A DNA stretch of 62,293 nucleotides, filler included. It is 6 parts of 6 records of this genome, joined end to end, with 100 filler letters (N's around TTAATTAATTAA, not from the genome) between each part and the next. Parts side by side here need not be neighbours in the genome. Positions count along the whole stretch, not along the records: positions 7,174 to 26,170 come from SRR31156797_8723; 5 more parts are not named here. One strand, 5' to 3'. Below, piece by piece: positions 7,074-28,854 of this stretch. Position 1 is the stretch's first letter; the number at the start of each line of letters is the position of its first letter. Made by a program: the position numbers and the translations under genes. The notes under the pieces are model-generated. The model had not been told where the DNA came from and searched no databases. It saw only the letters and a program-made list of their open reading frames with translations.

Positions 7074-7173
7074 NNNNNNNNNNNNNNNNNNNNNNNNNNN
7101 NNNNNNNNNNNNNNNNNTTAATTAATTAANNNNNNNNNNNNNNNNNNNNNNNNNNNNNNNNNNNNNNNNNNNN
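7074..7173. other. Artificial contig spacer
   Basis: 44 N + TTAATTAATTAA (stops in all six frames) + 44 N. Confidence 0.99.
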
Positions 7174-7418: not shown

Positions 7419-7426
7419 TATTTTTG
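7419..7426 (+). promoter_or_regulatory. Bacteroidota sigma-A -7 element
   Basis: TATTTTTG matches TAnnTTTG, about 40 nt before the phhA start. Confidence 0.55.
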
Positions 7427-7464
7427 GGGTACAATTTTGAAGAGTTCTAAATTAAGCGCATAAA

Positions 7465-9201: not shown

Positions 9202-9338
9202 GTTTAATTATAGCATAATAACTCATATTTGAGATTTCCCCTATCATTCTGTATCAATCCTTTATCCGATTCCAGACAAACTTGAAATTCGGCCATTTTT
9301 TTTCTAACTTTATGGCGTTAACCAATAAACCCAACGCC

Positions 9339-10034: not shown

Positions 10035-10060
10035 AATTTCTGAACAAATTCTAATCAAAA

Positions 10061-11482: not shown

Positions 11483-11536
11483 AATACCGATACAATTGAA
11501 TCGTTTTAAATAAATACACCCGCAGCATAAAAAGCC

Positions 11537-12325: not shown

Positions 12326-12366
12326 AGCTGACCATAACTAATAAAAATAAACATCTGCTCAAAAAA

Positions 12367-12732
12367 ATGACACCTGCTGAGGAATTCATATCAGGGTTTG
12401 AAGGAACCCAAAAGGACATCATGATTTACCTTCATGATATGATCACCAATCATCCAGGCATAACTTCCAGGATCAGTTATAGGCTGCCGTTTTATTACCG
12501 TAAGAGCTGGATATGCTATTTAAATCCGACAAAAACCGACGGCGTTGAATTTGCTTTCACGCGCGGCAATGAGCTATCCAATGAGCAGGGTATACTGGAC
12601 CCAAAAGGCAGAAAACAGGTTTCGAGTGTTACCTTTTATCAGATAGGGGAAATTCCGCATGAAACACTATTGGAAGTTCTACAAGAGGCTTTGATTATTG
12701 ACGAGAAAGTTCCATACTCAGTCAGAAAATAG
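12367..12732 (+). CDS. DUF1801 (YdhG-like) protein
   Basis: ISYRLPFY, FTRGNEL, GRKQV pattern typical of DUF1801. Confidence 0.75.
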   Translation: MTPAEEFISGFEGTQKDIMIYLHDMITNHPGITSRISYRLPFYYRKSWICYLNPTKTDGVEFAFTRGNELSNEQGILDPKGRKQVSSVTFYQIGEIPHETLLEVLQEALIIDEKVPYSVRK

Positions 12733-12838
12733 TTTGGTCCAATTATTTTTTTCCAACCCGCTGGTTTAACTCACTTCAGTATCAATAATCTTAGGAGGAA
12801 AAATCATATCTTTACCCGACAAACCAAACCATCATCAA

Positions 12839-13621
12839 ATGAAGATTCCGATTTACCAGGTAGATGCATTTACCCAAAATGTTTTCAGTGGAAACCCGGC
12901 TGCAGTTTGCCCGCTGGATTCCTGGCTACCAGAAGAACTGATGCAAAAAATTGCTTTGGAAAATAACCTTTCTGAAACGGCATTTTTTGTAAAAACCGGC
13001 AATGTATTTGAAATCAGGTGGTTCACACCTACCATTGAAGTTGACCTGTGCGGGCATGCCACCCTGGCATCGGCACATGTATTGTTTAACCACCTCGACT
13101 ACAAAAGTGACATTATTTTCCTGAAATCAAAAAGTGGAAATCTTAGGGTAAAAAAGGAGGATGACCTGCTTGTTTTGGATTTTCCGTCAGGATTTTATGA
13201 AAGTATATCCATACCTTCAAAACTGACAAAAGCATTGGGCCGCGAACCCGTTGATGCCGGAAAAACACTGGATTATCTTATCGCGGTTTATGAGGATGAG
13301 TCTTTCATCGAAAACCTGAACCCAGATTTTCAAATGCTGAAGGAACTACCGGGTCATGCACTCATTGTAACTTCGGCAAGCAAAAAAGTTGATTTTGTAT
13401 CCCGGATGTTTGCCCCATCTATTGGCATTGACGAAGATCCGGTAACCGGTTCTGCCCATACCATCTTAACTCCATACTGGTCGCACAAACTTGGTAAGGT
13501 GAATATGCACGCCAGGCAAATTTCGGCCAGGGGTGGTGATTTGTATTGTAAAATTTCCGGAGACCGTGTGGAGATCGGTGGAAAAGCCATTACCTATTTA
13601 GTTGGGGAAATTGAGTTGTAA
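12839..13621 (+). CDS. PhzF family isomerase/epimerase
   Basis: QVDAFT, GNPAAV, NLSETAF, EVDLCGHATLA, EDPVTGSAH. Confidence 0.95.
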   Translation: MKIPIYQVDAFTQNVFSGNPAAVCPLDSWLPEELMQKIALENNLSETAFFVKTGNVFEIRWFTPTIEVDLCGHATLASAHVLFNHLDYKSDIIFLKSKSGNLRVKKEDDLLVLDFPSGFYESISIPSKLTKALGREPVDAGKTLDYLIAVYEDESFIENLNPDFQMLKELPGHALIVTSASKKVDFVSRMFAPSIGIDEDPVTGSAHTILTPYWSHKLGKVNMHARQISARGGDLYCKISGDRVEIGGKAITYLVGEIEL

Positions 13622-13711
13622 TGAGTTGTTAAAAAAGATGTGAGTTGTGAGACTTAAGGCAAATTGATGCTGTCAAAATCCGGGAGAAAAAATGCTTTGT
13701 TATTATTTTAC

Positions 13712-13719
13712 TAATTTTG
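13712..13719 (+). promoter_or_regulatory. Bacteroidota -7 promoter element for tatA
   Basis: TAATTTTG, 21 nt upstream of the tatA ATG. Confidence 0.55.
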
Positions 13720-13740
13720 CACATCTAAAACGTAAAGACC

Positions 13741-13929
13741 ATGAATCTACACAGCATATTGATGTTCACCTTCGGCCCGATGGAAATCATCATCATACTC
13801 GTTATTGTTTTATTGCTTTTTGGCGGAAAGAAAATTCCTGAACTCATGAAAGGTATGGGAAAAGGGATCAAAGAATTTAAAAAAGGCGTTAACGAAGAAG
13901 ACGACAAACCGGAGCAATCCAGCAAATAA
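13741..13929 (+). CDS. tatA: Twin-arginine translocase TatA/E subunit
   Basis: [37 protein letters not shown]. Confidence 0.95.
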
Positions 13930-13950
13930 TTTGCTGCTTTCCTGCGCTAC

Positions 13951-16900
13951 TTACTCCCGCACAATTTCACGAACTTTTACCAACGGCTTCAGTTTTTTGA
14001 TAGCCTGTCTTACAGTTTTGGTATCCTCAAAAATCAGGCGTAGCTTACTTTTGGTTTGATCCATGATGAATGCAACCGGGTTGTGCTTCATGTAATTGAG
14101 AATATGTGTGAAAGCCTGCGACTGGTAGTAACTCGATGTTTCATCGCCAACAAAATAACCAATCAGTTTACCGTTTTTCAGTACGATCTTTTCAAACCCG
14201 ATTTTCTTTGCAAGCCAGCGCAATCTGATGGTATTAAAGAGATCATAAACCTCATCAGGTGGCCTGCCGAAACGGTCGGTAATTTGTTTTTCGAATCGCT
14301 CTAAACCCGCTTCATTTCCAATATTATCCAGTTCCTTGTAAAGGCTCAGGCGTTCGGTGGTTACTGAAACATAATCTTTCGGGATTAAAATCTGCAGATC
14401 GGTTTCCACCTGACAGTCCAGTACAAACTCTTTTTCAGGCTGATCTTTAAACACATCCTTAAACTCTTCCTCGCGCAATTCAAGCATAGCTTCATCCAAA
14501 ATCTTGTGATACATTTCATATCCGATATCTGAAATAAATCCGCTCTGTTCAGCTCCCAGCAGGTTACCGGCACCTCTAATATCAAGGTCGCGCATAGCAA
14601 TGTTAAATCCGCTACCCAGGTTCGAGAACTCTTCAAGCGCCCTCAACCTTTTCCGGGCTTCGGGAGTTAAAGTTGTGATGGGTGGGGAAAGCAGATAACA
14701 GAAAGCTTTTCTATTAGCACGTCCTACCCTGCCCCTGAGCTGATGCAAATCGCTGAGCCCAAAATTTTGTGCATCGTTGATGATAATGGTATTGGCGTTG
14801 GGAATATCCAGGCCATTCTCCACGATGGTAGTGGCTACAAGCACGTCGAACTCACCATCGATAAAACCGAGCATCACTTTCTCGAGTTTAGAGCCTTCCA
14901 TCTGTCCGTGTCCAATACCTATCTTTACCCCTGGAACAAACTTCTGGATCATATCGGCCACATCGTTGATATTTTGTACACGATTATGCACAAAAAACAC
15001 CTGGCCATTTCTGGATATCTCATAATTAATGGCATTGCTGATTACCTCCTCACTGAATCCGCGCAATTCCGTCTGGATGGGAATGCGGTTTGGTGGCGGC
15101 GTATTGATAACGGAAAGGTCGCGGGCGCCCATCAACGAAAACTGCAGGGTACGCGGGATTGGTGTCGCAGTCAGCGTGAGCGTATCCACATTTACCTTGA
15201 GCTGCTTGAGTTTTTCTTTTACAGACACGCCAAACTTTTGCTCCTCATCGATGATCAGCAGGCCCAGATCCTTAAATTTTATTTCCTTCGAAACCAGCTT
15301 ATGGGTCCCGATCAGAACATCCACTTTCCCATCAATCAGCCCTTTGTAAATCCGGGTTTGCTCTTTGCGCGATTTAAAGCGGTTAACATATTCAATATTC
15401 ACCGGAAAATCTTCAAGCCGCTTTTTAAAAGTTTTATAATGTTGCAATGCCAGGATGGTTGTAGGCACCAGAAGGGCCACCTGTTTACTGTCGGTAACCG
15501 CCTTAAAAGCAGCCCGCATAGCAACCTCTGTCTTCCCAAAGCCCACATCACCGCATACGAGCCTGTCCATGGGATATTCTTTCTCCATATCCGTTTTGGC
15601 ATCGTTGGTGGCTTTGTACTGATCCGGAGTATCCTCGTAAATAAACGAAGCCTCTAATTCATGTTGCAGATAGGAATCAGGTGCGAATGCAAATCCTTTG
15701 GCTGCCTTACGCTCTGCGTAAAGCTTGATGAGGTCTTTGGCAATATCCTTGACCTTTTTCTTGGTGCGCTCTTTGAGACGAGTCCAGTTGTTGGTACCCA
15801 GCCTGTTGAGCTTTGGGGCAATGCCTTCTTTACCCACGAACTTGGCAATGCGGTGCAGCGAATGGATACTCACATACAACAGGTCGCCATTATCGTATAC
15901 CAGGCGGATGGCTTCCTGCTGTTTACCGTTGTTATCGATACTTTGCAAACCATCAAAACGGCCCACACCATGATCGATATGGGTAACATAATCTCCGGGT
16001 TGCAGGTCGTAAATCTCCTTAAGGGTGATGGCCTCTTTACCTTTCAGGCTTTCGCGAAGGTGGAAACGGTGGTACCGATCGAAAATCTGATGATCTGTAA
16101 AACAGGCAATTTTAAGGTCATTATCCACAAATCCGCCGTGGATTGGCAAAGCAATGGTCTCGTATTCAAGTTGATTGGGATTTTCCTCCTTCCGCACAGC
16201 ATCATCCAGGATAGCATGCAAACGTTCGGCCTGCTTGGCATTGGAGGTAAAGATCACATTCTCAAAACCCGACCGTGTATTGTTATGCAGGCTCGAAATG
16301 AGCATATCAAAATTCTTGTTGAACGATGGCTGCGGCAAAACATCAAACTGCCAGCTTTGATCGGCTGACAACATTTTGTGATTCCCGAATTCTACAATCG
16401 AAAATTTGAGAGCCCCCTGTACGAATTGAGCTCCGGATATGAAAAGCCCCTCAGGATTTACCCGTTCATTTTCGCCGGCCAGTTGACCGTAGGCTGCCAC
16501 TGCCTTTTCCAGTTCCCTGTCCATTCGCTCAATGGTGAGGTTGGCGTCATCAAACCAAAACGTGGAATTGTCAGGGATAAATGTGGTTAGGGAAACCTTT
16601 GTAAAATCCTCCTCGCGTTTTTGCAGGTCGGGCATGATGGACACCTGGCTGAGCATGGTGAGCGAAAGCTGGTTCCCCGGTTCAAAAGTCCGGATGGATT
16701 CCACATCATCACCAAAAAACTCGATGCGGTATGGGTAATCGCTTGAAAAGGAAAAAATATCGATGATACCGCCGCGCACGGCAAACTGACCGGGTTCAGC
16801 TACAAAATCCACTTCTTCAAATTTCAGATCTTCCATAGCCTCTGTCATAAAATCCAGCGAGAGTTTATCGCCTTTTTTGACCATCAACGTGTTTTTGGCC

Positions 16901-17337
16901 ACTGTGAATTTATCCACCACTTTTTCTGCAAGTGCTTCAGGATAGGTAACCACAGCAAAGCCACGGCGGCGGCCATGCAATTTGTTGAGTACCTCGCTCC
17001 GCAGCAAAACATTGGAACTGTCGGTACGTTCAATCTCGTAAGGCCTTTTGTAGGAAGTGGGGAAAAACAACACCTTGCGCTTGCTGTATTCCATGTCGCG
17101 TTCACGGAAAAGGCTTTCCAGGTCGTTGTGGAAATAGGCTGCTGTTTCCTTATCGGGAAGGACAAAAATCTGGTTTCCTTTGAGGAGTTGCACCAACGAT
17201 GCCGCCACGAATGCCCGCATCGATCCCTTGCTGCCATTGATGTGCAGCCTTTTTGTCCGTTCGTCCAGCAGTTGTTCAGCTATTTGCCGCACAGCCGGAC
17301 TTTCGGCATACAATGTTAAAATTTCGTTACTCGTCAC
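13951..17337 (-). CDS. mfd: Transcription-repair coupling factor
   Basis: UvrB-homology N-terminus, RID (HIDHGVG), GDVGFGKT, DEEQ, QLRGRVGR, TRG motif RDLDIRGAGNLLG. Confidence 0.99.
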   Translation of the reverse strand: MTSNEILTLYAESPAVRQIAEQLLDERTKRLHINGSKGSMRAFVAASLVQLLKGNQIFVLPDKETAAYFHNDLESLFRERDMEYSKRKVLFFPTSYKRPYEIERTDSSNVLLRSEVLNKLHGRRRGFAVVTYPEALAEKVVDKFTVAKNTLMVKKGDKLSLDFMTEAMEDLKFEEVDFVAEPGQFAVRGGIIDIFSFSSDYPYRIEFFGDDVESIRTFEPGNQLSLTMLSQVSIMPDLQKREEDFTKVSLTTFIPDNSTFWFDDANLTIERMDRELEKAVAAYGQLAGENERVNPEGLFISGAQFVQGALKFSIVEFGNHKMLSADQSWQFDVLPQPSFNKNFDMLISSLHNNTRSGFENVIFTSNAKQAERLHAILDDAVRKEENPNQLEYETIALPIHGGFVDNDLKIACFTDHQIFDRYHRFHLRESLKGKEAITLKEIYDLQPGDYVTHIDHGVGRFDGLQSIDNNGKQQEAIRLVYDNGDLLYVSIHSLHRIAKFVGKEGIAPKLNRLGTNNWTRLKERTKKKVKDIAKDLIKLYAERKAAKGFAFAPDSYLQHELEASFIYEDTPDQYKATNDAKTDMEKEYPMDRLVCGDVGFGKTEVAMRAAFKAVTDSKQVALLVPTTILALQHYKTFKKRLEDFPVNIEYVNRFKSRKEQTRIYKGLIDGKVDVLIGTHKLVSKEIKFKDLGLLIIDEEQKFGVSVKEKLKQLKVNVDTLTLTATPIPRTLQFSLMGARDLSVINTPPPNRIPIQTELRGFSEEVISNAINYEISRNGQVFFVHNRVQNINDVADMIQKFVPGVKIGIGHGQMEGSKLEKVMLGFIDGEFDVLVATTIVENGLDIPNANTIIINDAQNFGLSDLHQLRGRVGRANRKAFCYLLSPPITTLTPEARKRLRALEEFSNLGSGFNIAMRDLDIRGAGNLLGAEQSGFISDIGYEMYHKILDEAMLELREEEFKDVFKDQPEKEFVLDCQVETDLQILIPKDYVSVTTERLSLYKELDNIGNEAGLERFEKQITDRFGRPPDEVYDLFNTIRLRWLAKKIGFEKIVLKNGKLIGYFVGDETSSYYQSQAFTHILNYMKHNPVAFIMDQTKSKLRLIFEDTKTVRQAIKKLKPLVKVREIVRE

Positions 17338-17361
17338 GATTCACCCTGCAATTTGCGGCTG

Positions 17362-17369
17362 CAAAAATA
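17362..17369 (-). promoter_or_regulatory. Bacteroidota -7 promoter element for mfd
   Basis: The minus strand reads TATTTTTG about 25 nt upstream of the GTG start. Confidence 0.55.
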
Positions 17370-17500
17370 GGGTTTTGATTGTGAATAGATATTTCCTGTG
17401 AGATATTATAAATTAAGGCAAGGATACATTTTTCTGATGACTTCGAATCATAGGATGAATTGCTGGTTTTATGATTTTATAAAATCCTGTTTGCACCTGA

Positions 17501-17542
17501 TCTAAAATCAAAAATCTTCAATCGATAATCTGATATCAACTA
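17501..17542. repeat. Degenerate heptanucleotide tandem repeat (6 units, TCnnnnA)
   Basis: tctaaaa tcaaaaa tcttcaa tcgataa tctgata tcaacta in the hemH-mfd intergenic region. Confidence 0.55.
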
Positions 17543-17563
17543 TTCCTGAAATTAATCAATGCA

Positions 17564-18577
17564 CTAACTCCTGCTCTCTCCCAAAATCTCCATCACCGCC
17601 TCCACCCAAACATCAGCGCTGTTGAGGCTTTCGACGAGTTGCAGCTTTTCGCCGCCGGCATTTTCGAACAGTTCGCGATATTCGAACCCGATTTCTAAGG
17701 TGGTTTCGAGGCAGTCGGCCACAAAGGAAGGTGCGACAACCAGCAGCTTGCCGATTCCTTTCGCGGCCTGGTCAACAATGGTTTCATCGGCAAAGGGTGT
17801 CATCCAGTTTTTGCTGAGGCGCGACTGGAAGGCGGTGGAGTACTTCTCCGGCGGCAGGCCGAGCTTAGCAGCCAGCAGCCGTGTGGTGGCATAGCACTGG
17901 GCGCGGTAACACAACCGTCCGTGCGGCGGCATTTCGCTTTCGCAACGGCAGTTTTCCACCGTCACATCCGGATGGATTTTGTTGATCTGCCGGTTGGGCA
18001 GGCCATGGTATGAAAACAGGATGTGATCGAAAGTTTCGGGCTGATAGGCATTGATCCGTTTTGCGAAAGCATCCACAAAGGCCGGATGATCATAAAACTG
18101 ATTGATGATTTGCAGCGACGGCATGGCCTGGCGGCTGCCAATCTGCTTCATGGTGGCCTCCACCACCGAACCCGTTGTTGAAGAGGCATGCTGCGGATAG
18201 AGCGGGAGAAGCACAACCTGATCGTAGTTCTTTTCCAATACTTCATCCAGCACCTTTCGCAGGGAGGGATTGCCATAGCGCATGGCGCCAAAGAAATCCG
18301 TTTCAGGGCCGGAGCGCTGCTGCAGCTTTTCGGTGAGATCGTTGAGGTGCAACAGCAGGAGAGATCCCTTCTTCGTCCAGAGGCGACGGTAAAGTTGGGT
18401 GGATTTGGGCGCGCGAAACGGCACGATGATGAGATTGACCAGCATTTTCTGCAGAAGCCACGGCAGGTCGATCACGCGGCGGTCGTTGAGGAACTCGGAA
18501 AGATAGCGGCGCACCTGCCTTACCTCCGCGTTGTCGGGAGTGCCCACATTTACCAATATGACAGCTTTTTTACCCAT
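17564..18577 (-). CDS. hemH: Ferrochelatase
   Basis: LVNVGTP, FLNDRRVID, MRYGNP, LPLYPQ, SYHGLP, FQSR, FVADCLETTLEIG. Confidence 0.97.
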   Translation of the reverse strand: MGKKAVILVNVGTPDNAEVRQVRRYLSEFLNDRRVIDLPWLLQKMLVNLIIVPFRAPKSTQLYRRLWTKKGSLLLLHLNDLTEKLQQRSGPETDFFGAMRYGNPSLRKVLDEVLEKNYDQVVLLPLYPQHASSTTGSVVEATMKQIGSRQAMPSLQIINQFYDHPAFVDAFAKRINAYQPETFDHILFSYHGLPNRQINKIHPDVTVENCRCESEMPPHGRLCYRAQCYATTRLLAAKLGLPPEKYSTAFQSRLSKNWMTPFADETIVDQAAKGIGKLLVVAPSFVADCLETTLEIGFEYRELFENAGGEKLQLVESLNSADVWVEAVMEILGESRS

Positions 18578-19958
18578 TGGATTGTTCGATCAGGGAATCG
18601 GCAATGATGCGGCCCTGCTTTACACGGTCGGCAATGCCGATGCCGTCGCGGATGTTGCCGGCCAATAGCAGCCCGGGATGTTCTTTTTCGATGAGGATGA
18701 TGCGGGCCAGGCGTTCTTCGGATGAGCGTTCATATTGCGGGATGGCATGCGGGTACCTGAAAATGTGCAGCATATCCGGTGCGGAATTTTCCTTCATCAT
18801 CTTGCCAATTTCGCTCAGCACCAGGTTCCGGATCTCTTCATCCGACAAATCGAAAAGTCCGGGTTTTTTCATCCCGCCAAGGAAAACCGAGAGCAGTGCT
18901 CCGCCGTGCGGCGCGCGTCCTTCGAAGATCGCCGACGGGAAAAGGATGCCGAGCACATCGCGTTTTTCCTTTCCGGGCACCAGTCCGCCAAAAGCCTGCA
19001 GCGGAATGCCGCTCCATTTTTTATAGCCGGCCACCGTCTGTATCACGCGGGCATAGCGGAGCTGTGTGATGGGCGCAAGCATTTCCTCCGTCAAAAAGGG
19101 CAACAAGTCCGGAAGGGCATATGCCCCCACCGTGGTAATCACTTTTTCGGTTTCGATCAGTTGCTGTTTTTGGCCGTCGTTTTTTACGGAGCAAAGAAAT
19201 CCGTTTCCTGACGGATGCACAGTTACGGCGTCTGCACCGTTCACCATATTTTCACTGCCGATGGATTCCGCCATGGCGCATGTCAGGTTTGCCAGCCCGC
19301 CCCTCACCGAAAATACATCTTTGGTGGCTTTTTCTTCACGTGGATCCTTTGGTTCTTTTCTTTTTTTGATGGCGCCGCCGATGAAGCTACCGTAGTTCTG
19401 TTCCAACCGGTGCAGTTTCGGCAGTGCAAAGCGGGTGACGAGATTGTCAGGATCGCCGGCATAAATGCCCGAGATAAACGGGTCGACCGCATAATCCAGG
19501 AAACTCTGTCCCATCCTGCGGATCACCAGTTGGGCCACGCTTTCATACGGATCGCTGCCGGCCTTGCGGAAGGGTTCTCTCAGGATGCGCAGCTTGTCCT
19601 TCATGCTGAACAAAGGGGTGGTCACGCCGCCGATCAGCCCCGAAGGCAACGCGTGCCAGCTTCCGTTTTTCCAGATCCAGCGTTGTTTTGCTGACTGATT
19701 GGCAATCTCAGGGTCACATTTATCGCCCAGGTCATCAAAGAGTTCCACCAGCTCGGGTGTGGACAACACTCCGGTATTTGGACCGGTTTCGTATGTAAAG
19801 CCATTTTCAGTGCGGGTTTGGATTACACCGCCGGTTCCGGAATTTTTATCCACCAGCATTACCTCTTTCCCGGCTTTTTTCAGGTAAAACCCGAGCGTAA
19901 GGCCGGTGAGGCCGGCACCGATTATGAGATATGTCGTTTTTTGTTTTTGTTCCATCAT
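18570..19958 (-). CDS. hemG: FAD-dependent protoporphyrinogen oxidase (HemY/HemG family)
   Basis: IIGAGLTGL Rossmann motif, GGVI..ETGPN, ISGIYAGD, AIPQY, GIGIADRV. Confidence 0.93.
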   Translation of the reverse strand: MMEQKQKTTYLIIGAGLTGLTLGFYLKKAGKEVMLVDKNSGTGGVIQTRTENGFTYETGPNTGVLSTPELVELFDDLGDKCDPEIANQSAKQRWIWKNGSWHALPSGLIGGVTTPLFSMKDKLRILREPFRKAGSDPYESVAQLVIRRMGQSFLDYAVDPFISGIYAGDPDNLVTRFALPKLHRLEQNYGSFIGGAIKKRKEPKDPREEKATKDVFSVRGGLANLTCAMAESIGSENMVNGADAVTVHPSGNGFLCSVKNDGQKQQLIETEKVITTVGAYALPDLLPFLTEEMLAPITQLRYARVIQTVAGYKKWSGIPLQAFGGLVPGKEKRDVLGILFPSAIFEGRAPHGGALLSVFLGGMKKPGLFDLSDEEIRNLVLSEIGKMMKENSAPDMLHIFRYPHAIPQYERSSEERLARIILIEKEHPGLLLAGNIRDGIGIADRVKQGRIIADSLIEQSNG

Positions 19959-21337
19959 CAAACGGTTTTGGAGTATCTTCGGGCTTGACGCCGGTACTCC
20001 GGATCGATGGCCGATGCGATATTCCGGATGAACAGCGCCCCGGCAGGGGTGACTGTAATTCCGTCCGGCGACAGCCCGATCAGTCCGTCATTAACAAATT
20101 CATCCAACGCTTGTTCGTCAGGCCTGATGATTTTGAGAAGTTCACCGGTTGAAATATCCAAACCTGCTGCCAGGTTTTCCCAGTTCATTTGCAGATTGCA
20201 CATCAGCGTATTGATGCCCTCGCGGATCACCTTTTGATCGAAGGTGAGTTTCAAGCCCTTTTCTACAGGAAGCCTCCCCTGCCCGATCGTATCGATATAG
20301 TCGTCGATTTCCTTCACATTTTGAACATACCCGCCGTCGAGTTGGCTGATGGCCGATACACCAAAAGCATACACCTGTCCGGTTGTGCGGCGGGTGCAAT
20401 AACCCTGGAAATTACGGTGAAGCTGGTTGTTTTTCAGGGCCACATACAGCTCGTCCATTGGCAACACATAATGATCAAGGCCTATGGGCTGGTAGCCAGC
20501 CTCCTGCAAAACTTCACCGGAAGCCAGGAACATGTCCATCTTTTCATCTGCCGAAGGCAATCCACGCTTGTCCAGTATCTTTTGGTTGGGCTTCATCCAG
20601 GGAACATGGGCGTATGAGAAAGTCACCAGCCGGTCGGGCCGGATGCGGGCGGCTTTGCGGATGGTTTCGCTGAAACTGCTTACGGTTTGACCGGGAAGGC
20701 CATAAATGAAATCGAGGTTCACACTGATCTGTTCATCCCCCGATTTGATGTATCCGATCAGCTCTTCCACCGGCATGGCCGAAGGATCGCGGTTCACGCC
20801 CTTCAACACATCTGCATCAAAATCCTGGATACCAAGGCTGAACCGGTTGAAACCTGCTGATTTGAGATCGTCGATGTACTTATTATTCAGGTATGCCGGG
20901 TTGCATTCGATGGCGATCTCTGGCTGTTCGATAAACTGAAAGCGATCGAAAAAAATCCTGTTGATTTCTGCGATCATTTTTGACGGAATGGCATTGGGCG
21001 TGCCGCCGCCGTAGTGGATCTGTGAAACAAGGCGTTTTTTACCGATCCTTTCCGTCACCATCCCGATTTCCTTTTTCAGTGCATCAATATAGGGCTCCAC
21101 AAGTTTGCCGCTGCCAATGTTACAGGCATTGCATCCGCAGTAAAAACAAAGCTTAGTGCAAAACGGGATGTGGATATAAAAAGCGATGTGTTCCGGTTCC
21201 CCCTGGTTGGAGGCATCCAGCAACGCCAGGGCGCTAACTTCCGAAAATCCGTCTGTAAAATGGTTGGCCGGCGGATAGCTGGTGTAGCGTGGCACCGGCA
21301 TATTATACTTTTCGAGTAATTCAGGGTTAAATTTCAT
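19958..21337 (-). CDS. hemN: Oxygen-independent coproporphyrinogen III dehydrogenase
   Basis: PRYTSYP, YIHIPFCTKLCFYCGC, GGGTP and HRNFQGY (signature of true HemN rather than HemW). Confidence 0.95.
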   Translation of the reverse strand: MKFNPELLEKYNMPVPRYTSYPPANHFTDGFSEVSALALLDASNQGEPEHIAFYIHIPFCTKLCFYCGCNACNIGSGKLVEPYIDALKKEIGMVTERIGKKRLVSQIHYGGGTPNAIPSKMIAEINRIFFDRFQFIEQPEIAIECNPAYLNNKYIDDLKSAGFNRFSLGIQDFDADVLKGVNRDPSAMPVEELIGYIKSGDEQISVNLDFIYGLPGQTVSSFSETIRKAARIRPDRLVTFSYAHVPWMKPNQKILDKRGLPSADEKMDMFLASGEVLQEAGYQPIGLDHYVLPMDELYVALKNNQLHRNFQGYCTRRTTGQVYAFGVSAISQLDGGYVQNVKEIDDYIDTIGQGRLPVEKGLKLTFDQKVIREGINTLMCNLQMNWENLAAGLDISTGELLKIIRPDEQALDEFVNDGLIGLSPDGITVTPAGALFIRNIASAIDPEYRRQARRYSKTV

Positions 21338-22532
21338 TGATATCTTTCTTTCTGTAAGCAAATATAACGATAAACAGCGCAGCCACACCCAGCAGGGCTT
21401 CACCGAGGAAAAGGCCGTCGTAGCCGATCTTGTCGCCCACATGACCGCTCATTACGGCAATGATCAGTCCGCTCAGGTGGGTGATCACGATCTGCACCGT
21501 AAAATCGGTCCCCTCGCGGCCCTTTCGCACCACATCCATCGACGTGGTATAGATGGCCACTGTGCTCAGCCCGTAGGCACCCCACAGCAGGCAGATGCCA
21601 AGATAGATACTGATTAGCGGCGGTTCACTGCCGGTCATCGCATAAAAATATACTGCCGCAATGATATTGATCAGTGCAAACAGAAACAAGGAAGTGCGCC
21701 TGCCGATCTTTTTTACGATCAGTCCGGCAGCCAGCGCAGCAAGTGCCGCCACTGAAGTTCCCACAATCCCCGACATGAATCCGATCTCTTTGGCCGTATA
21801 GCCAAGATCGACCATCCAGGGCTTAAGCATAGCCAGGATGCCGATGATGCCGGAATAGTAAAACACCAGGATCAGCACGCGGCGGTACATGCCCGGGATG
21901 GCAAAGAAACGGTAAATATCGACCAGGGTTACGCGGGGCTTGTCCACTTTTTCGCGCTGCCCTGCGGGTTTGTACAAAACCAGCGGTATCAATGCAAAGG
22001 CCACGAATGCCGCAAGCAAGAACAGCAGCCATTCCCAGCCAAAATAGTAATAAGCGATCAGCAACACACCGGTGCCCAGCAGGCTGCCGGTGAAGCTTCC
22101 CGCCGACTGCATGCTGTTGCCCAGCCCGCGCTCAGCTGGTCTCAGGATGACGATGGCAAAAGCGTCGGTGGCGATGTCCTGGGTGGCCGACGCCATGAAG
22201 GCCAAAACCAGCAACACCACGATAAGCCGGAAATCTGTTTGCAGGTCGAAATGGGCGATGCTCACGATCACTGCGGCATAAAACAATTCCGACACCACAA
22301 TCCAGGCACGGAGTTGCCGCTTGTTCCTGGCTTTATTGTCAACCAGCGGCGCCCAAAGGAATTTCACGATCCAGGGCAGCTTTACCAGTTGCAGCAGGCC
22401 GATGGACTCCAGCGAGTAATTCTCCTGACGCATGATCACCGGGACCACCGTGGAGAAAAAACTCATCGGCACCGCCTGTGCGATGTAAAGACTGAAAAGG
22501 ACCGGAAACTTCGGCCACTGCTTGTTTTTCAT
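21327..22532 (-). CDS. MFS transporter (AmpG/RhtX/FptX-like)
   Basis: LYIAQAVP, LPWIVKFLWAPLVD, SATQDIATDA, EGTDFTVQ; many hydrophobic segments. Confidence 0.88.
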   Translation of the reverse strand: MKNKQWPKFPVLFSLYIAQAVPMSFFSTVVPVIMRQENYSLESIGLLQLVKLPWIVKFLWAPLVDNKARNKRQLRAWIVVSELFYAAVIVSIAHFDLQTDFRLIVVLLVLAFMASATQDIATDAFAIVILRPAERGLGNSMQSAGSFTGSLLGTGVLLIAYYYFGWEWLLFLLAAFVAFALIPLVLYKPAGQREKVDKPRVTLVDIYRFFAIPGMYRRVLILVFYYSGIIGILAMLKPWMVDLGYTAKEIGFMSGIVGTSVAALAALAAGLIVKKIGRRTSLFLFALINIIAAVYFYAMTGSEPPLISIYLGICLLWGAYGLSTVAIYTTSMDVVRKGREGTDFTVQIVITHLSGLIIAVMSGHVGDKIGYDGLFLGEALLGVAALFIVIFAYRKKDINEI

Positions 22533-22535
22533 TAA

Positions 22536-24635
22536 TTAGAACCTCACCGAAAGATTTACACCAAAGCGCATGGGCTTGCCCACCTGCACGTATTCATTCC
22601 CCAACGCATCAAAGTAAAATGCATTGTAATCGGCACCAAACAGGTTCTTGCTCCATACATCGAACTGAAATGCGCCTTTGATGAACGACACTTTCGCGTC
22701 AACCAGACCGTAGTAGTCCTGCGAGCGGGTGTTCTCCTCGTTCCAGAAAATCTCCCCTGCACCGCGGTACTGGAGGTTGAACCGCATCTTGTCGAGCAGC
22801 GTCGAATGCTGCAGGAAAACCACCTTACTCAGTTGAACGCCTACGGTATGACGCGGCACATAAGGAATGAAATTTCCGCTGTGGCTGGTGGTTGAATCCA
22901 CTTCATACGAAAGAAATTCTGCGTTGGTATAGCCATAGGTTACCAGCGCTTGGTAGCCTTTCACCGGAACGGTTTTAAGCGTCACCTCCACGCCCCTGCT
23001 CACCGAGTGGCCGGCATTTTTCAGCATGGAGCCGCGACCGCTGGGAACGGTCTGGTAAATCTGCTGGTTGCGCCAGTCGATGTAAAACAGCGCCAGCTCG
23101 GCATGCAGCCGGTTGTCGATGAGCTGGGTTTTGATGCCCGCTTCATAGTTCCAGCTGTATTCCGGTTCGAAGGTCAGGTCCTGCGGCCGCTCAAAAGTGG
23201 AATTGAAACCGCCGGTTTTATACCCCTTGGCCACAGTCGCGTAAAGGTTGGTCCTGCCAAGCTGGTAGTTGATGGCCACCTTGGGCAGCACCTCGAAGAA
23301 ATCCATGGATGGATAAGTGGTGTCGGCCAGGTTGGTGAGGTTGTCGTTTTTTTCCATGTCGTAGGTGTAATCGAGCACGTCCTTTTCATAATCCACGCGG
23401 ATACCGGCAGTTAACGAAAGCCCGTCCACCAGGAAATCGTTCAGGGTGGACTGATGGAAAAACGCATAGCCGCCGATGTTGTGATCGTAACGCTTGAACA
23501 GCTTCATGCCGGAAGCGTACACATCCACATCCACGCCCCTGTCGAACGACTGGAGGAATCCGTAGGCTCCCACCAGCCAGTTGTATTTTTTCTCACCCGT
23601 GGAGCGGGCGATTAGTTCCTGCGACAGCATGTGTTGTTTTTGCCGCTGCTCCACAAAATACAGTGAATCTTCGGTAAAATCCTGGTCGATATCCTGCACA
23701 TCATCCAGCAGTTGATAAGCCGTGGTGGATACGATCTCGAAGCGGTCGCCGCTGTATGTGGCCACAAGCGCATCCGAGAACAGGTCGCGGTCGTAGGTGC
23801 TATATTGATTATAGCTGATTTCTTCGGCCATGTTCAGCGAATCGTTATAAATGGCATAAGGATACCCGCCCTGGCGGCTGATCTCGAGTGATGCAATATT
23901 TTTAAGCGTGAAATTATCCGACAGCTTCCAGACCAGCTTATTGCGCAGACCCAGCGAATTGATTTCGTCCACTTTCTGACCATTATACTGGTTGGTGAAA
24001 TATCCGGCATTGTCCAGGTAATTCACAGCAAGGGAGTAGCCGAAGTTTTCCGAAATCTTTCCGTAATGCCCGGCATTTATGTTGTAGGCGTTGTAGTTGC
24101 CTCCCGAAAGTTTGATGTGCGTTCCCTGGTATTCAAGCGGCGAAGCGGTAACGATATTCACGATGCCGCCCATGGTATTTCTTCCGTAAAGGGTTCCCTG
24201 CGGGCCGCGCAGAACCTCGATGCGTTCCACATCAAATAAATCGAAAGCGAATGCGGCTTTCTCGAAATACGGCACGCCATCCACGTACATGCCCACCGAC
24301 GGGGCATTGATACGCGAACCGATGCCGCGGATGTAAACCGGTGAGGTAAGTTTGGAGCCGTAATCGGGCATGAAGAAATTGGGGACAACCGCCGAGGCAT
24401 CCGACAGCGTATTTACCTCATTACGGCTGATGGCCTGGCCCGACAACACCGACACGGACGCCGGTATCTCACGCAGTTTCAGGTTGTCCCGGGAAGCGCT
24501 GATCCTTACTTCGCCAAGTTCTACTTCCAGCACCGCAGTGCTGTCGGTGGAGTTGACCACCGTTTGGGCAAATCCCCCCATTGCGAACATTACGTTCAAT
24601 ATGATGATGAATGAGCTTTTCAGTTTCATATTCAT
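22536..24635 (-). CDS. TonB-dependent outer-membrane receptor
   Basis: Signal peptide, plug motifs YIRGIG and IEVLRGPQGTLYGRN..GG, C-terminal Phe (NLSVRF). Confidence 0.95.
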   Translation of the reverse strand: MNMKLKSSFIIILNVMFAMGGFAQTVVNSTDSTAVLEVELGEVRISASRDNLKLREIPASVSVLSGQAISRNEVNTLSDASAVVPNFFMPDYGSKLTSPVYIRGIGSRINAPSVGMYVDGVPYFEKAAFAFDLFDVERIEVLRGPQGTLYGRNTMGGIVNIVTASPLEYQGTHIKLSGGNYNAYNINAGHYGKISENFGYSLAVNYLDNAGYFTNQYNGQKVDEINSLGLRNKLVWKLSDNFTLKNIASLEISRQGGYPYAIYNDSLNMAEEISYNQYSTYDRDLFSDALVATYSGDRFEIVSTTAYQLLDDVQDIDQDFTEDSLYFVEQRQKQHMLSQELIARSTGEKKYNWLVGAYGFLQSFDRGVDVDVYASGMKLFKRYDHNIGGYAFFHQSTLNDFLVDGLSLTAGIRVDYEKDVLDYTYDMEKNDNLTNLADTTYPSMDFFEVLPKVAINYQLGRTNLYATVAKGYKTGGFNSTFERPQDLTFEPEYSWNYEAGIKTQLIDNRLHAELALFYIDWRNQQIYQTVPSGRGSMLKNAGHSVSRGVEVTLKTVPVKGYQALVTYGYTNAEFLSYEVDSTTSHSGNFIPYVPRHTVGVQLSKVVFLQHSTLLDKMRFNLQYRGAGEIFWNEENTRSQDYYGLVDAKVSFIKGAFQFDVWSKNLFGADYNAFYFDALGNEYVQVGKPMRFGVNLSVRF

Positions 24636-24750
24636 TTGCTTTTAATTTGATCCGGTGCAAATCCGGAAATCATAAGCCGGCCCGGCAAGGCGCGGAAAAA
24701 ATGATAAATAGTATGGTTAAAGAAAAGTGGCCGGAAAATGGCCTGGTGAT

Positions 24751-25107
24751 TCAGGAAATGTGTGGCGGGGGACGTGAAAACAAATTAAAACACAAACACC
24801 CGGTAAGGGGTATTTCGCCGGAAGGTTCGGGAAGTCTCCAAGAGGCTGCGGGCAGCGGGACAGGCTCCGGGTCCGCGGCGGATGCTGCATGACAATCATC
24901 TGCGAGAAACTGATCAGGAGATACCTGCATCGTTTTCTGCGACGGGAGCGGTTGCCACGAAACCGTGTTTTCGGCGGCCTCTTCAGTTTCAACCGGCTCA
25001 ATTTCAGCGTTCAGCTTATTGTAGGTGTACACCCCGAGATACAGCACGTACATGACCGCGATGGTCAGATACGGGATGAACGAGGAAAATAAGCTAAACT
25101 GGAACAT
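24751..25107 (-). CDS. Small membrane-anchored leader protein ending in FSRPPP (candidate arrest peptide)
   Basis: N-terminal hydrophobic helix (FSSFIPYLTIAVMYVLYLGVY), acidic Pro/Ala-rich linker, C-terminal CLCFNLFSRPPPHIS; 115 nt upstream of the TonB receptor on the same strand. Confidence 0.65.
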   Translation of the reverse strand: MFQFSLFSSFIPYLTIAVMYVLYLGVYTYNKLNAEIEPVETEEAAENTVSWQPLPSQKTMQVSPDQFLADDCHAASAADPEPVPLPAASWRLPEPSGEIPLTGCLCFNLFSRPPPHIS

Positions 25108-25768
25108 ATGTCGATATTTAAATTCTTGCAAAGAAAATCAATTTGGATTTTAGGACAAAGGGAAAGTGCTCTATTTAGGTAATTTAGAACCGGTTTAAGC
25201 TAGTATAGGGATGGGTGGAAAAACCATTTAAAATGGTAACCCTACCCAAATCTCCCATTTTATAAAATAATTCAGGCATTCTCATGAAGCAGCATACTCA
25301 GGATCAGCCTGGAGGGTTACAAAGAGCAGAGTACAGAGCGAAGGTAAAATCAAATATTTGAGTTCATAGATCGGAAATCATACATCAAAGGGGCGTCAGA
25401 TATCCGAAGTATGATTTTTAATCTGCGATAAAACCCTGAAGCGATCAATGCCTGTTACATCGCCAGGTGCCACAGGCTAAGTACTGAGGAATCAGCTATC
25501 TTTTATTTAAAGTTTCGCTCCTTTATCAGCTTTTCCACGGCCTTATCCTTTTTAGAGTTTTCGATTATTTTGTAAGCTAAAAAATAGCGGAATCAACAAA
25601 AAAAATCGCGTGATTGTTTTGCAGCATGCATGATATCTTTTTGTAGGGCCGCACCAATTTATCCATCGCAAAATCCGGTTCCGGTTGAACCACCAGAACC
25701 GGCATTAATGCCGGGCTTTGAGATAGTGCCTAGTTGTTCGGGGATATTGTTTTGACTGGAATACGGTA

Positions 25769-26170
25769 CTACAATTCCTGCAAATCCTTTTTAAGATAAA
25801 TCATATCAACAAGTTGTATATCGCCCTCGAAAATGGGATGGTCATAGTTATCCGTAAAAAAATTCTTTACCCGGTGTGATACTTCGAATCCACAATTTTC
25901 ATAAAACGACAAAATCGCCGGTGTTTCGCCTGTCCCTACAAGCATTGTTTTGAAATCGTTTTTATAGAAATCAGCAATAAATTTTATCAATGCCCTGCCG
26001 TACCCTTTGCCCTGATATTTCTCGTAAGTTGCTATGTTTTTCAACTCGCAGGTTTTGCAATTTATTGGCAATACCACGCATACACTTTTCAAATCATCAT
26101 CAAACAAAGCAAACAAGTCTCCATCCGGTAAATACTTATCAATCATATTTTCCTGCTCGTCTGCCAACAA
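25769..26170 (-). CDS. GNAT family N-acetyltransferase (5'-partial)
   Basis: ELKNIAT..QGKGYG acetyl-CoA motif, FYENCGF; LLADE N-terminal motif cut by the spacer. Confidence 0.9.
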
Positions 26171-26270
26171 NNNNNNNNNNNNNNNNNNNNNNNNNNNNNN
26201 NNNNNNNNNNNNNNTTAATTAATTAANNNNNNNNNNNNNNNNNNNNNNNNNNNNNNNNNNNNNNNNNNNN
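26171..26270. other. Artificial contig spacer
   Basis: 44 N + TTAATTAATTAA + 44 N. Confidence 0.99.
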
Positions 26271-26405
26271 GCCGCCGGTGTGGGCGAACTGCCCCTGACC
26301 AGCCCCCATGCCTCCATCATTAACGGTATATACAACGCCTGCGGCGTCAGAATCACCCAGCTTCCGGCCAAGCCCGAAAAGGTCCTGGCGGGGCTTAACG
26401 GATAA
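26271..26405 (+). CDS. mop: C-terminus of a molybdopterin aldehyde oxidoreductase (Mop / xanthine oxidase family), 5'-partial
   Basis: Not in the ORF track. Translates AAGVGELPLTSPHASIINGIYNACGVRITQLPAKPEKVLAGLNG*, closely resembling the Desulfovibrio Mop C-terminus with the catalytic GVGE Glu. Confidence 0.88.
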   Translation, partial: AAGVGELPLTSPHASIINGIYNACGVRITQLPAKPEKVLAGLNG

Positions 26406-26464
26406 TGGATGCTTGAACTTTTGGTCAGCGACGTTTCAAGCTGAATCTTAACCCGGATTCTTCA

Positions 26465-26497
26465 GAACCGAGGGGTGAAAACCCCTTGGTTCATTTT
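26465..26497 (+). terminator. Stem-loop / probable terminator after mop
   Basis: GAACCGAGGGGT-GAAA-ACCCCTTGGTTC followed by ATTTT. Confidence 0.65.
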
Positions 26498-26541
26498 ATA
26501 TGACGGTTTGAAGGCATTCAGGAAAACGGATCGGTAAAATA

Positions 26542-28854
26542 GTGGATCAAGCGGAACTGAGGCAACTGGAAAAAAAGTGTATCCAGGAGGAGGCCCCCCC
26601 ATGCGTCGCCGCCTGCCCCATTCATGTGGACGCGCGTTCCTTTATGGGATTTGTTCGCAACGAAGCCTGGGACGACGCCTGGATGGTTTTGCGCAAAACC
26701 ATGCCTTTCCCCGGCATTCTGGGTCGAATCTGCGATGCCCCCTGTAAAGAACGCTGTCAACGGGGGGAGGCGGGGGACCCCGTTGAAATCGGCCTCTTGG
26801 AAAAGGTTTGCGTCTCAAAATACCCGCCCCATTTCAGATTGCCTCCCATCCTTTCAAAAGGAAAACGGGTCGCCGTCCTGGGTAGCGGCCTCATTGAATT
26901 GACCGTTGTGTGGGACCTGGCGAGAAAAGGTTATGAGGTAACGATCTTTGAACCGGGCCCATCTCTCGGAGGAAACCTGAGGGAACTTGCGCCTGAAATC
27001 CTTCCTCCGGAGATCATCGATCGGGAAACGGCCGTTCTGAACCGTCTGGGAGTCCAAATTTCATTGGAAGCGGCTGCGCCTTGGGAGAACCTTTTGGTGC
27101 AATTGAAGGACGATTTTGACGCGATCCATATGGGATCGGGCGCGGTTCGCGCCGTGCAATCCGGTTTTCGGAAAAACGCCCGCGGCAAACCCGACGCCGA
27201 AAGCCGTATGACCGGCATGGACGGTGTTTTTGCCTCTCCGTCGTCGGAAAAACGCTTTCAATCTCCCGTATGGCAAGCTGCGGAGGGACGTTTGATCGCA
27301 ACTTCCATGGACCGGTACCTTCAGAAGGTATCCATGACGGCGGGACGCGAAAAAGAGGGCCCTTACGCCACGAGACTCCATACGAACATGAAGGGCGTAT
27401 CCGAAGCACGGGCCGTTCAGCCCTTGGACCCGGACGAAGGTTACGCGGACCATGAAGCCGCCCTGGAAGCCCGCCGATGCCTGCAATGCGAATGTCTCGA
27501 GTGCGTAAAGGTCTGTCCCTATCTCGCCCATTACAACGGTTATCCTAAGAAATACGTTCGGGAAATATACAACAACGAATCCATCGTCATGGGAACGAGA
27601 CATGCAAACGGATTCATCAACTCGTGCAGTTTGTGCGGTCTTTGCCAACGGGTGTGCCCGGAAGATTTCCCCATGCAGGATGTCTGCATGAACGCTCGCG
27701 AAGGCATGGTCCAGCGAAACAAAATGCCGCCCTCGGCCCACGAGTTCGCCCTTCTGGATATGGCTTTCAGTCGGGGACCCCGGTTTTCCCTTGTGCGTCA
27801 TGAACCGGGGCATTCATCCAGCGCCTATCTTTTTTTCCCGGGATGCCAGTTGTGCGCGTCGTCGCCGGACAAGGTTTTCGAGACCTACCGCTATTTTCGC
27901 GGGAAGATCAGCGGCGGCGTGGGGCTGATGCTCGATTGCTGTGCCGCGCCCGCCCTTTGGTCGGGACGGAGGGGGGAATTTCAAGAGGCCCTGAACTCCC
28001 TTGAAGGGAAATGGACGGATTTGGGAAGTCCGACCATCGTAACCGCCTGCTCCACCTGCTTCAGCATGTTCCGCCATCATCTTCCGGAAATGAAGGTCTT
28101 ATCCCTCTGGGAGATGTTTTCCCATGTGGGTTTGCCGGATGGATCCCTTACGCCGTCCAAAGAAAAAATATTAGCGGTTCACGACCCGTGCACAACACGG
28201 GATGATCCTGAAATGCATCGTATAATAAGGTATCTGTTGAAACAACTTGGCGTTTCGGTTGAAGAACTTCCCTTGGCCGGTGAATTCACGGAATGCTGCG
28301 GTTTCGGGGGTCTGATGCAAAACGCCAACCCCGAGGTGGCAAAAAAGACGGTCCTCAACAGGGCCGGTCTCAGCCGGTCCGATTACGTGACTTACTGCGG
28401 CATGTGCCGGGACAACCTGGGCGCCGCCGGCAAAAGAACCGTTCACATTCTCGACCTCATATTCCCCGGGCCCCCAAGCATTGATCCCGCCTCCGAAAAA
28501 CCGCCCGGATGGTCCTTGCGCCAGGAAAACAGGGCGAGATTGAAGGGAAGGTTCAAGACGGAGATATGGAATGAAAGGATGTCCCCTATGGAAGCGCATC
28601 GTAACATAAATCTCATCATCTCTCCCGTGGTGGGCGATATTCTGGAGCGCCGCAGAATTCTGGAAGAGGACATTCAAAAGGTCATTTTTCATGCGGAGGA
28701 GACCGGCAATAAGTTTGAAAACAATGAAACTGGCCGTTTTAAGGCGTCACACAAACCCTATAGGGCCACCTTTTGGGTTGAATATGCTCCTTCGGAAGAC
28801 GGTTTTACCATTTATAACGCATACTCACACCGCATGGAGGCCATTCAAGCATGA
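26542..28854 (+). CDS. Fe-S oxidoreductase fusion: GltD-like dicluster + Rossmann-like + 2x[4Fe-4S] + two CCG domains (DVU_1558-like)
   Basis: CIQEEAPPCVAACP, LGRICDAPC..C, VAVLGSG, CLQCECLECVKVCP, CSLCGLCQRVCP, FPGC..CCAAP..ACSTC, HDPC..CCGFGG..YCGMC. Confidence 0.85.
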   Translation: MDQAELRQLEKKCIQEEAPPCVAACPIHVDARSFMGFVRNEAWDDAWMVLRKTMPFPGILGRICDAPCKERCQRGEAGDPVEIGLLEKVCVSKYPPHFRLPPILSKGKRVAVLGSGLIELTVVWDLARKGYEVTIFEPGPSLGGNLRELAPEILPPEIIDRETAVLNRLGVQISLEAAAPWENLLVQLKDDFDAIHMGSGAVRAVQSGFRKNARGKPDAESRMTGMDGVFASPSSEKRFQSPVWQAAEGRLIATSMDRYLQKVSMTAGREKEGPYATRLHTNMKGVSEARAVQPLDPDEGYADHEAALEARRCLQCECLECVKVCPYLAHYNGYPKKYVREIYNNESIVMGTRHANGFINSCSLCGLCQRVCPEDFPMQDVCMNAREGMVQRNKMPPSAHEFALLDMAFSRGPRFSLVRHEPGHSSSAYLFFPGCQLCASSPDKVFETYRYFRGKISGGVGLMLDCCAAPALWSGRRGEFQEALNSLEGKWTDLGSPTIVTACSTCFSMFRHHLPEMKVLSLWEMFSHVGLPDGSLTPSKEKILAVHDPCTTRDDPEMHRIIRYLLKQLGVSVEELPLAGEFTECCGFGGLMQNANPEVAKKTVLNRAGLSRSDYVTYCGMCRDNLGAAGKRTVHILDLIFPGPPSIDPASEKPPGWSLRQENRARLKGRFKTEIWNERMSPMEAHRNINLIISPVVGDILERRRILEEDIQKVIFHAEETGNKFENNETGRFKASHKPYRATFWVEYAPSEDGFTIYNAYSHRMEAIQA

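Follow-up and report, generated by a model that had tools for sequence, protein, structure and literature searches.

A candidate operon for the import and completion of a late haem precursor in Bacteroidales

Haem-precursor salvage is the role proposed here for six adjacent genes of a Bacteroidales bacterium that would itself lack the means to build the porphyrin ring. These genes occupy positions 17564-25107, on the minus strand, of a 62,293-nucleotide (nt) stretch of DNA, referred to throughout as the window. In order of transcription, they encode a leader-like protein of 118 residues, a TonB-dependent receptor, a permease of the major facilitator superfamily (MFS), the coproporphyrinogen III dehydrogenase HemN, a HemY-type protoporphyrinogen IX oxidase and the ferrochelatase HemH. 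Judging from the sequence and from pathway logic, which is what points to the ligand, the operon probably serves to import coproporphyrin(ogen) III and then to convert it to haem. The receptor would bring a late, metal-free haem precursor in through the outer membrane, from where the permease would carry it across the inner membrane, the precursor most likely being coproporphyrinogen III, or coproporphyrin III that becomes reduced. Thereafter, HemN would form protoporphyrinogen IX, the HemY-type oxidase would form protoporphyrin IX, and the ferrochelatase would insert iron, yielding protohaem for enzymes such as cytochrome bd. The open reading frame (ORF) at the upstream end, which carries an RPPP motif near its stop codon, probably regulates the operon as a ribosome-arrest leader. 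The parts of this arrangement, a siderophore-type import pair and a residual late haem pathway, are known; what is new, with reasonable though far from complete confidence, is that the pair has been re-purposed for a haem precursor and joined to the pathway.

Gene content and conserved order of the operon

The strongest single argument for this reading is one of position. In two relatives with the full pathway (loci L103 and L104), the genes hemA-hemC-hemD-hemB-hemL-hemE-hemN-hemY-hemF-hemH lie on one strand, and in the genomes that carry the transporter genes the receptor-MFS pair occupies the place of hemA through hemE, directly before hemN, with the tail hemN-hemY-hemH retained. Since the pair stands in the hemA-hemE position, it would be expected to supply what HemE makes, coproporphyrinogen III, or a compound that turns into it.

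This order is widely kept. Relatives of the MFS protein number in the thousands, the best 120 being 65-96% identical to it and those among them that bear a name being MFS transporters of Bacteroidales metagenome bins. In a scan of one genome per species, 422 stretches encode an MFS relative; the best 80 were taken with 10-kb flanks as a close set, and 20 more loci, with an MFS protein 45-55% identical to that of the window, were drawn as a distant set from a 301-genome sample of the order. Adjacency was counted only where a locus has enough sequence on the relevant side. Counted in this way, the synteny on which the first-pass annotation of the window had proposed to judge the operon is strong. 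The receptor gene is directly upstream of the MFS gene in 82/82 loci (65/65 close and 17/17 distant), hemN is directly downstream of it in 87/90 (69/70 and 18/20), and hemY comes next after hemN in 78/83 (64/65 and 14/18). The ferrochelatase gene is next on the same strand in 63/77 loci (58/60 close, 5/17 distant) and lies anywhere in the locus in 68/77, which makes it the least tightly linked gene of the module; the junction between the MFS gene and hemN often consists of overlapping codons. Such a weld of MFS to HemN, alongside a loose HemH, argues for a substrate link to HemN and not for an iron link to ferrochelatase. The arrangement recurs in about 100 species-level genomes with differing flanks, as illustrated by mfd, present in 1/80 loci of the close set, and it is far beyond chance. 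The nearest locus, L001, encodes five proteins 89-96% identical to those of the window. When the ORFs in the 5-kb flanks were clustered, no haemophore, regulator or reductase proved to be conserved there, with no family besides the leader occurring in more than 10 loci.

Within the window, the receptor gene (22536-24635) encodes a protein of 699 residues with a signal peptide, a plug and a 22-strand-type barrel, the N-terminal signalling extension being absent. The permease gene (21327-22532) encodes 401 residues of the AmpG/RhtX/FptX superfamily, and is followed by hemN (19958-21337), for an oxygen-independent radical-SAM coproporphyrinogen III dehydrogenase of 459 residues, by the gene for the HemY-type oxidase (18570-19958), which depends on flavin adenine dinucleotide (FAD) and has 462 residues, and by hemH (17564-18577), for a ferrochelatase of 337 residues. 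The first-pass annotation had described five co-directional genes at 17564-24635 with gaps or overlaps of +3, -11, -1 and -8 nt, and all five ORFs were recovered there on the minus strand with the same spacings from receptor to HemH. As an account of the whole cluster it fell one gene short, however, for it did not list the conserved co-directional ORF of 118 residues at 24751-25107. The start of hemN was set at the ATG aligned with position 2 of the HemN profile (the longest ORF begins at 21442), and with that start the gene overlaps the end of the MFS gene by 11 nt. The oxidase gene has an alternative TTG start at 19961, with which the third spacing becomes -4 nt.

Of the gene names first given, four (TonB receptor, MFS, hemN and hemH) stand, and the fifth, hemG, does not, as the protein is of the HemY type, with 462 residues and an FAD-binding amine-oxidase fold; the name hemG agrees with how gene symbols are used but does not identify the enzyme family. 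This oxidase scores 259.9 bits on TIGR00562 (cut-off 97.85) over residues 9-454 and 133.1 bits on Pfam Amino_oxidase, and it has an NAD_binding_8 domain. A flavodoxin-type HemG was rejected on its length, its amine-oxidase fold and the lack of a flavodoxin match. HemN scores 443.7 bits on TIGR00538 (cut-off 324.95) and 136.6 bits on the HemW model TIGR00539 (cut-off 205.4), and by curated score it is a true HemN and not HemW-like. The motifs PRYTSYP and RNFQGY that had been reported for it are indeed present, at residues 16 and 308, together with the CxxxCxxC of the radical-SAM cluster at residue 60. The ferrochelatase reaches 299.9 bits on Pfam PF00762 (cut-off 27) and 232.5 bits on TIGR00109 (cut-off 124.6).

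Haem pathway genes in carrier genomes

Genes of the early pathway were searched for in the genomes behind five related loci, one of these genomes being a single 4.6-Mb chromosome record and another that of L001, with curated models that each found their target in control genomes. Several carriers, such as those behind L032, L094 and L096, have contigs of megabase size. HemA, HemB, HemC, HemE and HemL were each over the cut-off in 0/5 carrier genomes. For HemE, there were weak matches of 24-68 bits to paralogues of the URO-D family in 4/5 carriers, and for HemL the top paralogue in the five carriers scored 338 bits against a cut-off of 527. A HemD homologue is retained in 5/5 carriers; of the genes whose absence from the hosts the first-pass annotation had proposed to check (hemA, hemL, hemB, hemC, hemD and hemE), all but hemD are thus missing. 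One such orphan HemD is encoded on contig 1 of genome G001 at 1257432-1258070, inside locus L032 and about 8 kb upstream of the operon; an orphan HemD is likewise reported for other Bacteroidota in PMC13096392. Cytochrome bd subunit I, part of a haem enzyme, is encoded in 5/5 carriers. With cytochrome bd present and the early genes absent, these five bacteria would need haem and could not make coproporphyrinogen. In the window itself, profile searches of the encoded proteins found no early tetrapyrrole genes, and the first-pass statement that the cluster has none thus extends to the whole stretch. A candidate HemL, the class-III aminotransferase encoded at 47614-48813, is an ornithine aminotransferase.

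The 301-genome sample of the order was searched with the MFS protein (E <= 1e-20), HemN (E <= 1e-60), HemB, HemE and ferrochelatase, and positives numbered 45 for MFS, all of them at least 46% identical to the window protein (46-96%), 57 for HemB, 50 for HemE, 89 for HemN and 80 for ferrochelatase. The transporter and HemE are largely complementary. MFS was found in 1/50 HemE-positive genomes versus 44/251 HemE-negative ones (Fisher p = 2e-3, a test that ignores relatedness). Among the 89 genomes with HemN, 48 have HemE, 42 have MFS, one has both and none has neither. The 251 HemE-negative genomes divide into 41 with HemN and MFS, three with MFS only, none with HemN only and 207 with neither, an association of HemN with MFS for which Fisher p = 6e-44, again ignoring relatedness. 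Ferrochelatase was found in 80 genomes, 74 of which are HemE-positive or MFS-positive. Three MFS-positive genomes (G022, G060 and G072) have HemB without HemE, a combination in keeping with entry into the pathway beyond HemE. Among 371 genomes sampled from the phylum, strong MFS matches occurred in four, all of them also in the sample of the order, and 18 further genomes had matches of 24-32% identity.

A partial control for relatedness comes from a tree of HemN with 131 rows (86 transporter-linked and 45 from full-pathway genomes), from which high-scoring segment pairs covering 400 query residues or fewer were left out and any rows with internal stops would have been excluded. On this tree, the context of HemN changes 13 times, at least 11 of the changes being forced by well-supported branches; with shuffled labels the mean is 37.6, and 0/500 shuffles were as low. 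Because the context has changed repeatedly, the association is not one inherited accident.

Truncated haem pathways have been described elsewhere. According to PMC13096392, Porphyromonas gingivalis has residual late haem genes (HemD, HemN/HemW, HemG and HemH) that are scattered, and its 'HemN' is HemW-like. The carriers resemble such haem-auxotrophic Bacteroidota in having kept an orphan HemD as well as late haem enzymes. For HusA/HusB of P. gingivalis, PMC12094164 puts forward, as a 'theoretical hypothesis', that coproporphyrinogen III or protoporphyrin IX is taken up to feed those enzymes. HusA/HusB consists of a porphyrin-binding haemophore and a receptor, is unrelated and has no assigned inner-membrane step, whereas the window operon would provide both membrane steps together with a true HemN and has no conserved haemophore neighbour. 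Leishmania, according to PMC9143042, likewise has only the final three enzymes of haem synthesis and must import haem or preformed porphyrins; in contrast to the carriers, it is a eukaryote whose enzymes are mitochondrial, whose transporters (LHR1 and FLVCRb) are unrelated and whose genes form no operon. In the literature covered, subscription journals and supplements lying outside that coverage, neither a receptor-MFS-hemN-hemY-hemH operon nor any characterised importer of coproporphyrin(ogen) in bacteria was found.

Cargo of the receptor and permease

The receptor matches Pfam Plug at 80.1 bits (residues 54-158) and TonB_dep_Rec_b-barrel at 106.4 bits (residues 180-651) and, having both plug and barrel, fits the TonB-dependent receptor superfamily. 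On the haem/haemoglobin receptor model TIGR01785 it scores 62.9 bits against a cut-off of 316.85. The permease scores 91.5 bits on Pfam MFS_1, and the best solved relative of its family profile is AmpG (E = 1.3e-32), with the acetyl-CoA transporter matching less strongly. The earlier suggestion that the two proteins import a coproporphyrin(ogen)-type precursor to be finished to haem draws support from synteny, from the loss of the early pathway and from the complementarity with HemE; the ligand itself we infer.

A number of observations weigh against that suggestion. The receptor's top solved relative is FyuA, the yersiniabactin/pesticin receptor (4epa, E = 1.4e-33), which aligns over its full length (residues 59-697), and other solved siderophore receptors align with its plug alone. 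The best NCBIfam matches of both proteins are siderophore-type models, TonB-siderophore and RhtX/FptX, at scores under the cut-off: the receptor is below every NCBIfam cut-off, its top match being the siderophore subfamily TIGR01783 (161.2 vs 223.5 bits), and the permease falls short on RhtX/FptX TIGR02718 (172.1 vs 356.15 bits) and on AmpG TIGR00901 (148.8 vs 350 bits). Weak homologues of the permease (27-30% identity, tblastn) were examined at six loci of the phylum. None of the six has hem genes, and in four of them (L150, L151, L152 and L154) the MFS gene comes directly after a receptor gene; AraC-type regulators (L152 and L154) and fused ABC transporters (L150, L151 and L154) are encoded nearby. 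L154 has the complete order AraC-receptor-MFS-ABC-ABC, which we take to be the layout of yersiniabactin or pyochelin uptake loci. As its weak homologues sit in such siderophore-like loci, the hem-linked pair looks like an offshoot of siderophore-type import systems, and an iron chelate is the main rival cargo. Genome G117 points the same way, with the pair (locus L083) directly downstream of a xenosiderophore-type cluster of receptor, DUF4374 and PepSY_TM genes (1344-9735, plus strand). The receptor of this trio carries a CarboxypepD_reg domain, no hem gene is nearby, HemN is absent from the genome, and HemY and HemH are encoded elsewhere in it.

Other points against the import of a coproporphyrin(ogen) lie in its chemistry, in further exceptional genomes and in the sample. 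HemN acts on reduced porphyrinogen, which air readily oxidises, and the operon holds no evident porphyrin reductase. This is the main chemical gap, and either the reduced form is taken up in anoxic habitats or some further reduction step exists. In G215 (L107, 384-6487, minus strand), the order is receptor-MFS-HemY-HemH, with HemN cleanly gone and about 160 nt between the MFS gene and hemY; in G086 (L087), the MFS gene follows a gene of the SPFH family, without receptor and HemN, and HemY and HemH are in the genome. Of the sampled genomes, G126 (L105 and L106) alone has HemE as well as the operon. There, hemA-C-D-B-L-E lie on one contig, which stops just past hemE, and receptor-MFS-HemN-HemY lie on another, the genome being either an evolutionary intermediate or a mixed bin. 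A ferrochelatase match (PF00762) is missing in 12/45 MFS-positive versus 8/50 HemE-positive genomes; since the HemE-positive genomes also show the deficit, part of the gap would be bin incompleteness. In G257 (L081), receptor-MFS-HemN-HemY lie on a 3.4-Mb contig and the genome has no ferrochelatase match, and in G163 there is no HemY match. Finally, the co-occurrence statistics ignore phylogeny, and most of the sampled genomes are metagenome bins with no reported completeness or contamination.

Cognate pairs of a TonB receptor and an AmpG-like MFS permease include FptA/FptX for pyochelin, RhtA/RhtX for rhizobactin 1021 and FyuA/YbtX for yersiniabactin, and these have the same two-protein architecture, and belong to the same families, as the window pair. 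The pair could, in the manner of FptA/FptX and RhtA/RhtX, import a ferric chelate, whether siderophore or xenosiderophore, the linkage to hem genes then reflecting iron for ferrochelatase or a shared response to iron limitation. The resemblance to FyuA, the siderophore-type models, the yersiniabactin-like features of the six loci and the setting of the pair in G117 all speak for this, and we nonetheless regard it as unlikely. An iron supplier would be equally useful to genomes with a full pathway, yet just one of the 50 HemE-positive genomes has the permease; HemN in HemE-negative genomes never occurs without MFS (0/41); and the pair is joined to HemN and not to HemH, the loosest gene and the one undetected in 12 MFS-positive genomes. 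It is on the rarity of the permease in full-pathway genomes, the weld to HemN and the loose or undetected ferrochelatase that an iron chelate is ranked below a haem precursor. Unlike the siderophore pairs, moreover, the window clade is joined to hemN-hemY-hemH and not to genes for siderophore synthesis or release; it is nearly confined to genomes without HemE, its cargo would be a metal-free tetrapyrrole and not a ferric chelate, and its receptor and permease in the window both fall under the curated cut-offs of the siderophore families.

The cargo might also be another tetrapyrrole, namely protoporphyrin(ogen) IX, a metalloporphyrin or haem, with HemN not the entry point. The three MFS-positive genomes without HemN (G215, G117 and G086), all of which have HemY and HemH, are in keeping with this, as is the growth of P. 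gingivalis on protoporphyrin IX plus iron recorded in PMC13096392 and PMC12094164. From the genomes without HemN, it seems that protoporphyrin(ogen) may be a further substrate of the importer. As an account of the operon at large, this too has a low probability, for HemN is immediately beside MFS in all but three of the 90 countable loci, the window protein is a true HemN by curated score, the keeping of HemN across the 45-96% identity range is sensible only if the cargo precedes protoporphyrinogen IX, and the import of haem would require none of the three enzymes. It is highly improbable that the permease exports toxic porphyrin intermediates or that the linkage has no functional meaning. MFS proteins can transport in either direction, but a TonB-dependent receptor is an import device and is adjacent in every countable locus, the full-pathway genomes that make the intermediates almost never carry the pair, and at least 11 changes of context on the HemN tree have left the order intact. 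The preferred reading remains the import of coproporphyrin(ogen) III.

The upstream ORF, the surrounding window and wider significance

The ORF at 24751-25107 has an N-terminal hydrophobic helix and ends in F-S-R-P-P-P plus three residues, and its stop codon is separated from the receptor start by a spacer of 115 nt, read from the sequence (24636-24750, minus strand). BLAST clustering placed a same-strand ORF of about 117 residues at a median of 134 nt upstream of the receptor gene in 51 loci, the window included. The two ends of this family are conserved, namely the hydrophobic helix and the C-terminal (F/L)-S-R-P-P-P plus a few residues, and its middle is variable; the window member is 42% identical to that of L001, versus 89-96% for the neighbouring genes. 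Among loci with at least 600 nt of upstream sequence, the motif R[PA]PP followed by 0-14 residues and a stop was found within 900 nt upstream in 59/80 (57/61 close and 2/19 distant), against a background of 27/790 random windows of 930 nt. It is mostly R-P-P-P, and literally R-A-P-P in 4/59 loci (L025, L029, L047 and L095). The ORF matches no Pfam or NCBIfam family, and in an atlas look-up its nearest clusters were Bacteroidota hypotheticals (0.97), with a SecM_small cluster at 0.92 as a weak lead.

According to PMC12992588, small secreted or membrane proteins with a C-terminal R-A/G-P-P are ribosome-arrest leaders whose genes are enriched in front of those for TonB-dependent receptors, and in Bordetella pertussis it is through such an arrest that CruR controls the receptor encoded after it; CutF of Rhodobacter capsulatus stalls at a PPP motif (bioRxiv 10.1101/2025.02.05.636593). 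Its likeness to these leaders makes the ORF a candidate regulatory leader of the RAPP-like arrest-peptide type; alternatively, it is a candidate small membrane subunit. As in the RAPP/RGPP leaders such as CruR, the ORF directly upstream of the receptor gene specifies a small protein that begins with a membrane or secretion signal and has R-x-P-P a few residues ahead of its stop. The window family differs in that its motif is mostly R-P-P-P and its N-terminal helix is not the same, and the candidate leader would sense porphyrin or haem status, compared with copper for systems of the CruR/CutF type. There were no Rfam matches in 17000-26600 at E up to 1, no RNA sequencing run was listed as containing the stretch (one run, perhaps its source, contains most of it), the predicted RNA fold of the leader-to-receptor region (24615-24840) was no better than that of shuffled sequences (z = -1.2), and matches to a sigma-70-type promoter were fewer than in shuffles (4 vs a mean of 9.4), in a scan that does not model Bacteroidota promoters.

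The remainder of the window is ordinary anaerobe chromosome, with genes for V-ATPase subunits, UvrA, Mfd, MetH, aldehyde:ferredoxin oxidoreductase and molybdenum cofactor synthesis. The first-pass annotation had found the hem block to be more GC-rich than the 7.2-13.9 kb part, and so it is, with a GC content per kb of 0.485-0.548 versus 0.385-0.448 in the 7-14 kb stretch; most of the window, however, is at 0.46-0.61, so that the outlier is the low-GC stretch and not the hem block. Low-GC stretches (0.35-0.45) lie at 7001-14000 and at 49001-55000, against about 0.46-0.61 elsewhere, and the first of them holds biopterin-hydroxylase-like, cytidylate-kinase-like, C69 peptidase, DUF3179, DUF1801 and PhzF-like genes. 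On the other side of the operon, a gene at 26542-28854 (plus strand) encodes a pyridine nucleotide-disulfide oxidoreductase/dicluster-binding protein of 770 residues that scores 1021 bits on the NCBIfam model 'diclust_near_Sec', and a 1.9-kb gap holding a GNAT gene separates it from the operon's upstream end.

Taken together, and only tentatively when all its elements are combined, the operon may be the first route to be defined genetically by which bacteria take up a metal-free intermediate of haem synthesis (coproporphyrinogen III or coproporphyrin III). In it, a siderophore-type pair would have been re-purposed to stand in for the first six steps of the pathway, in roughly one of every seven species sampled from the order, and an RPPP leader responsive to tetrapyrrole status would act as the switch. 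Haem synthesis is lacking in many environmental and host-associated bacteria, and the acquisition of the porphyrin ring is known mainly for haem itself; the operon offers a concrete and testable candidate gene pair for the import of a haem precursor. For annotation within this order, it yields a rule, namely that a genome with HemN but no HemE also has the transporter pair (41/41). The RPPP leader may be a further case of the control of a TonB-dependent receptor by an arrest peptide. If the proposed import is correct, permeases of the FptX/RhtX/AmpG type and FyuA-like receptors would acquire a new class of cargo. The presence of the permease in 45/301 genomes of the order suggests that members of anoxic communities share late haem intermediates as public goods, and in anoxic sediments and digesters porphyrinogen cross-feeding would then be part of ordinary life.

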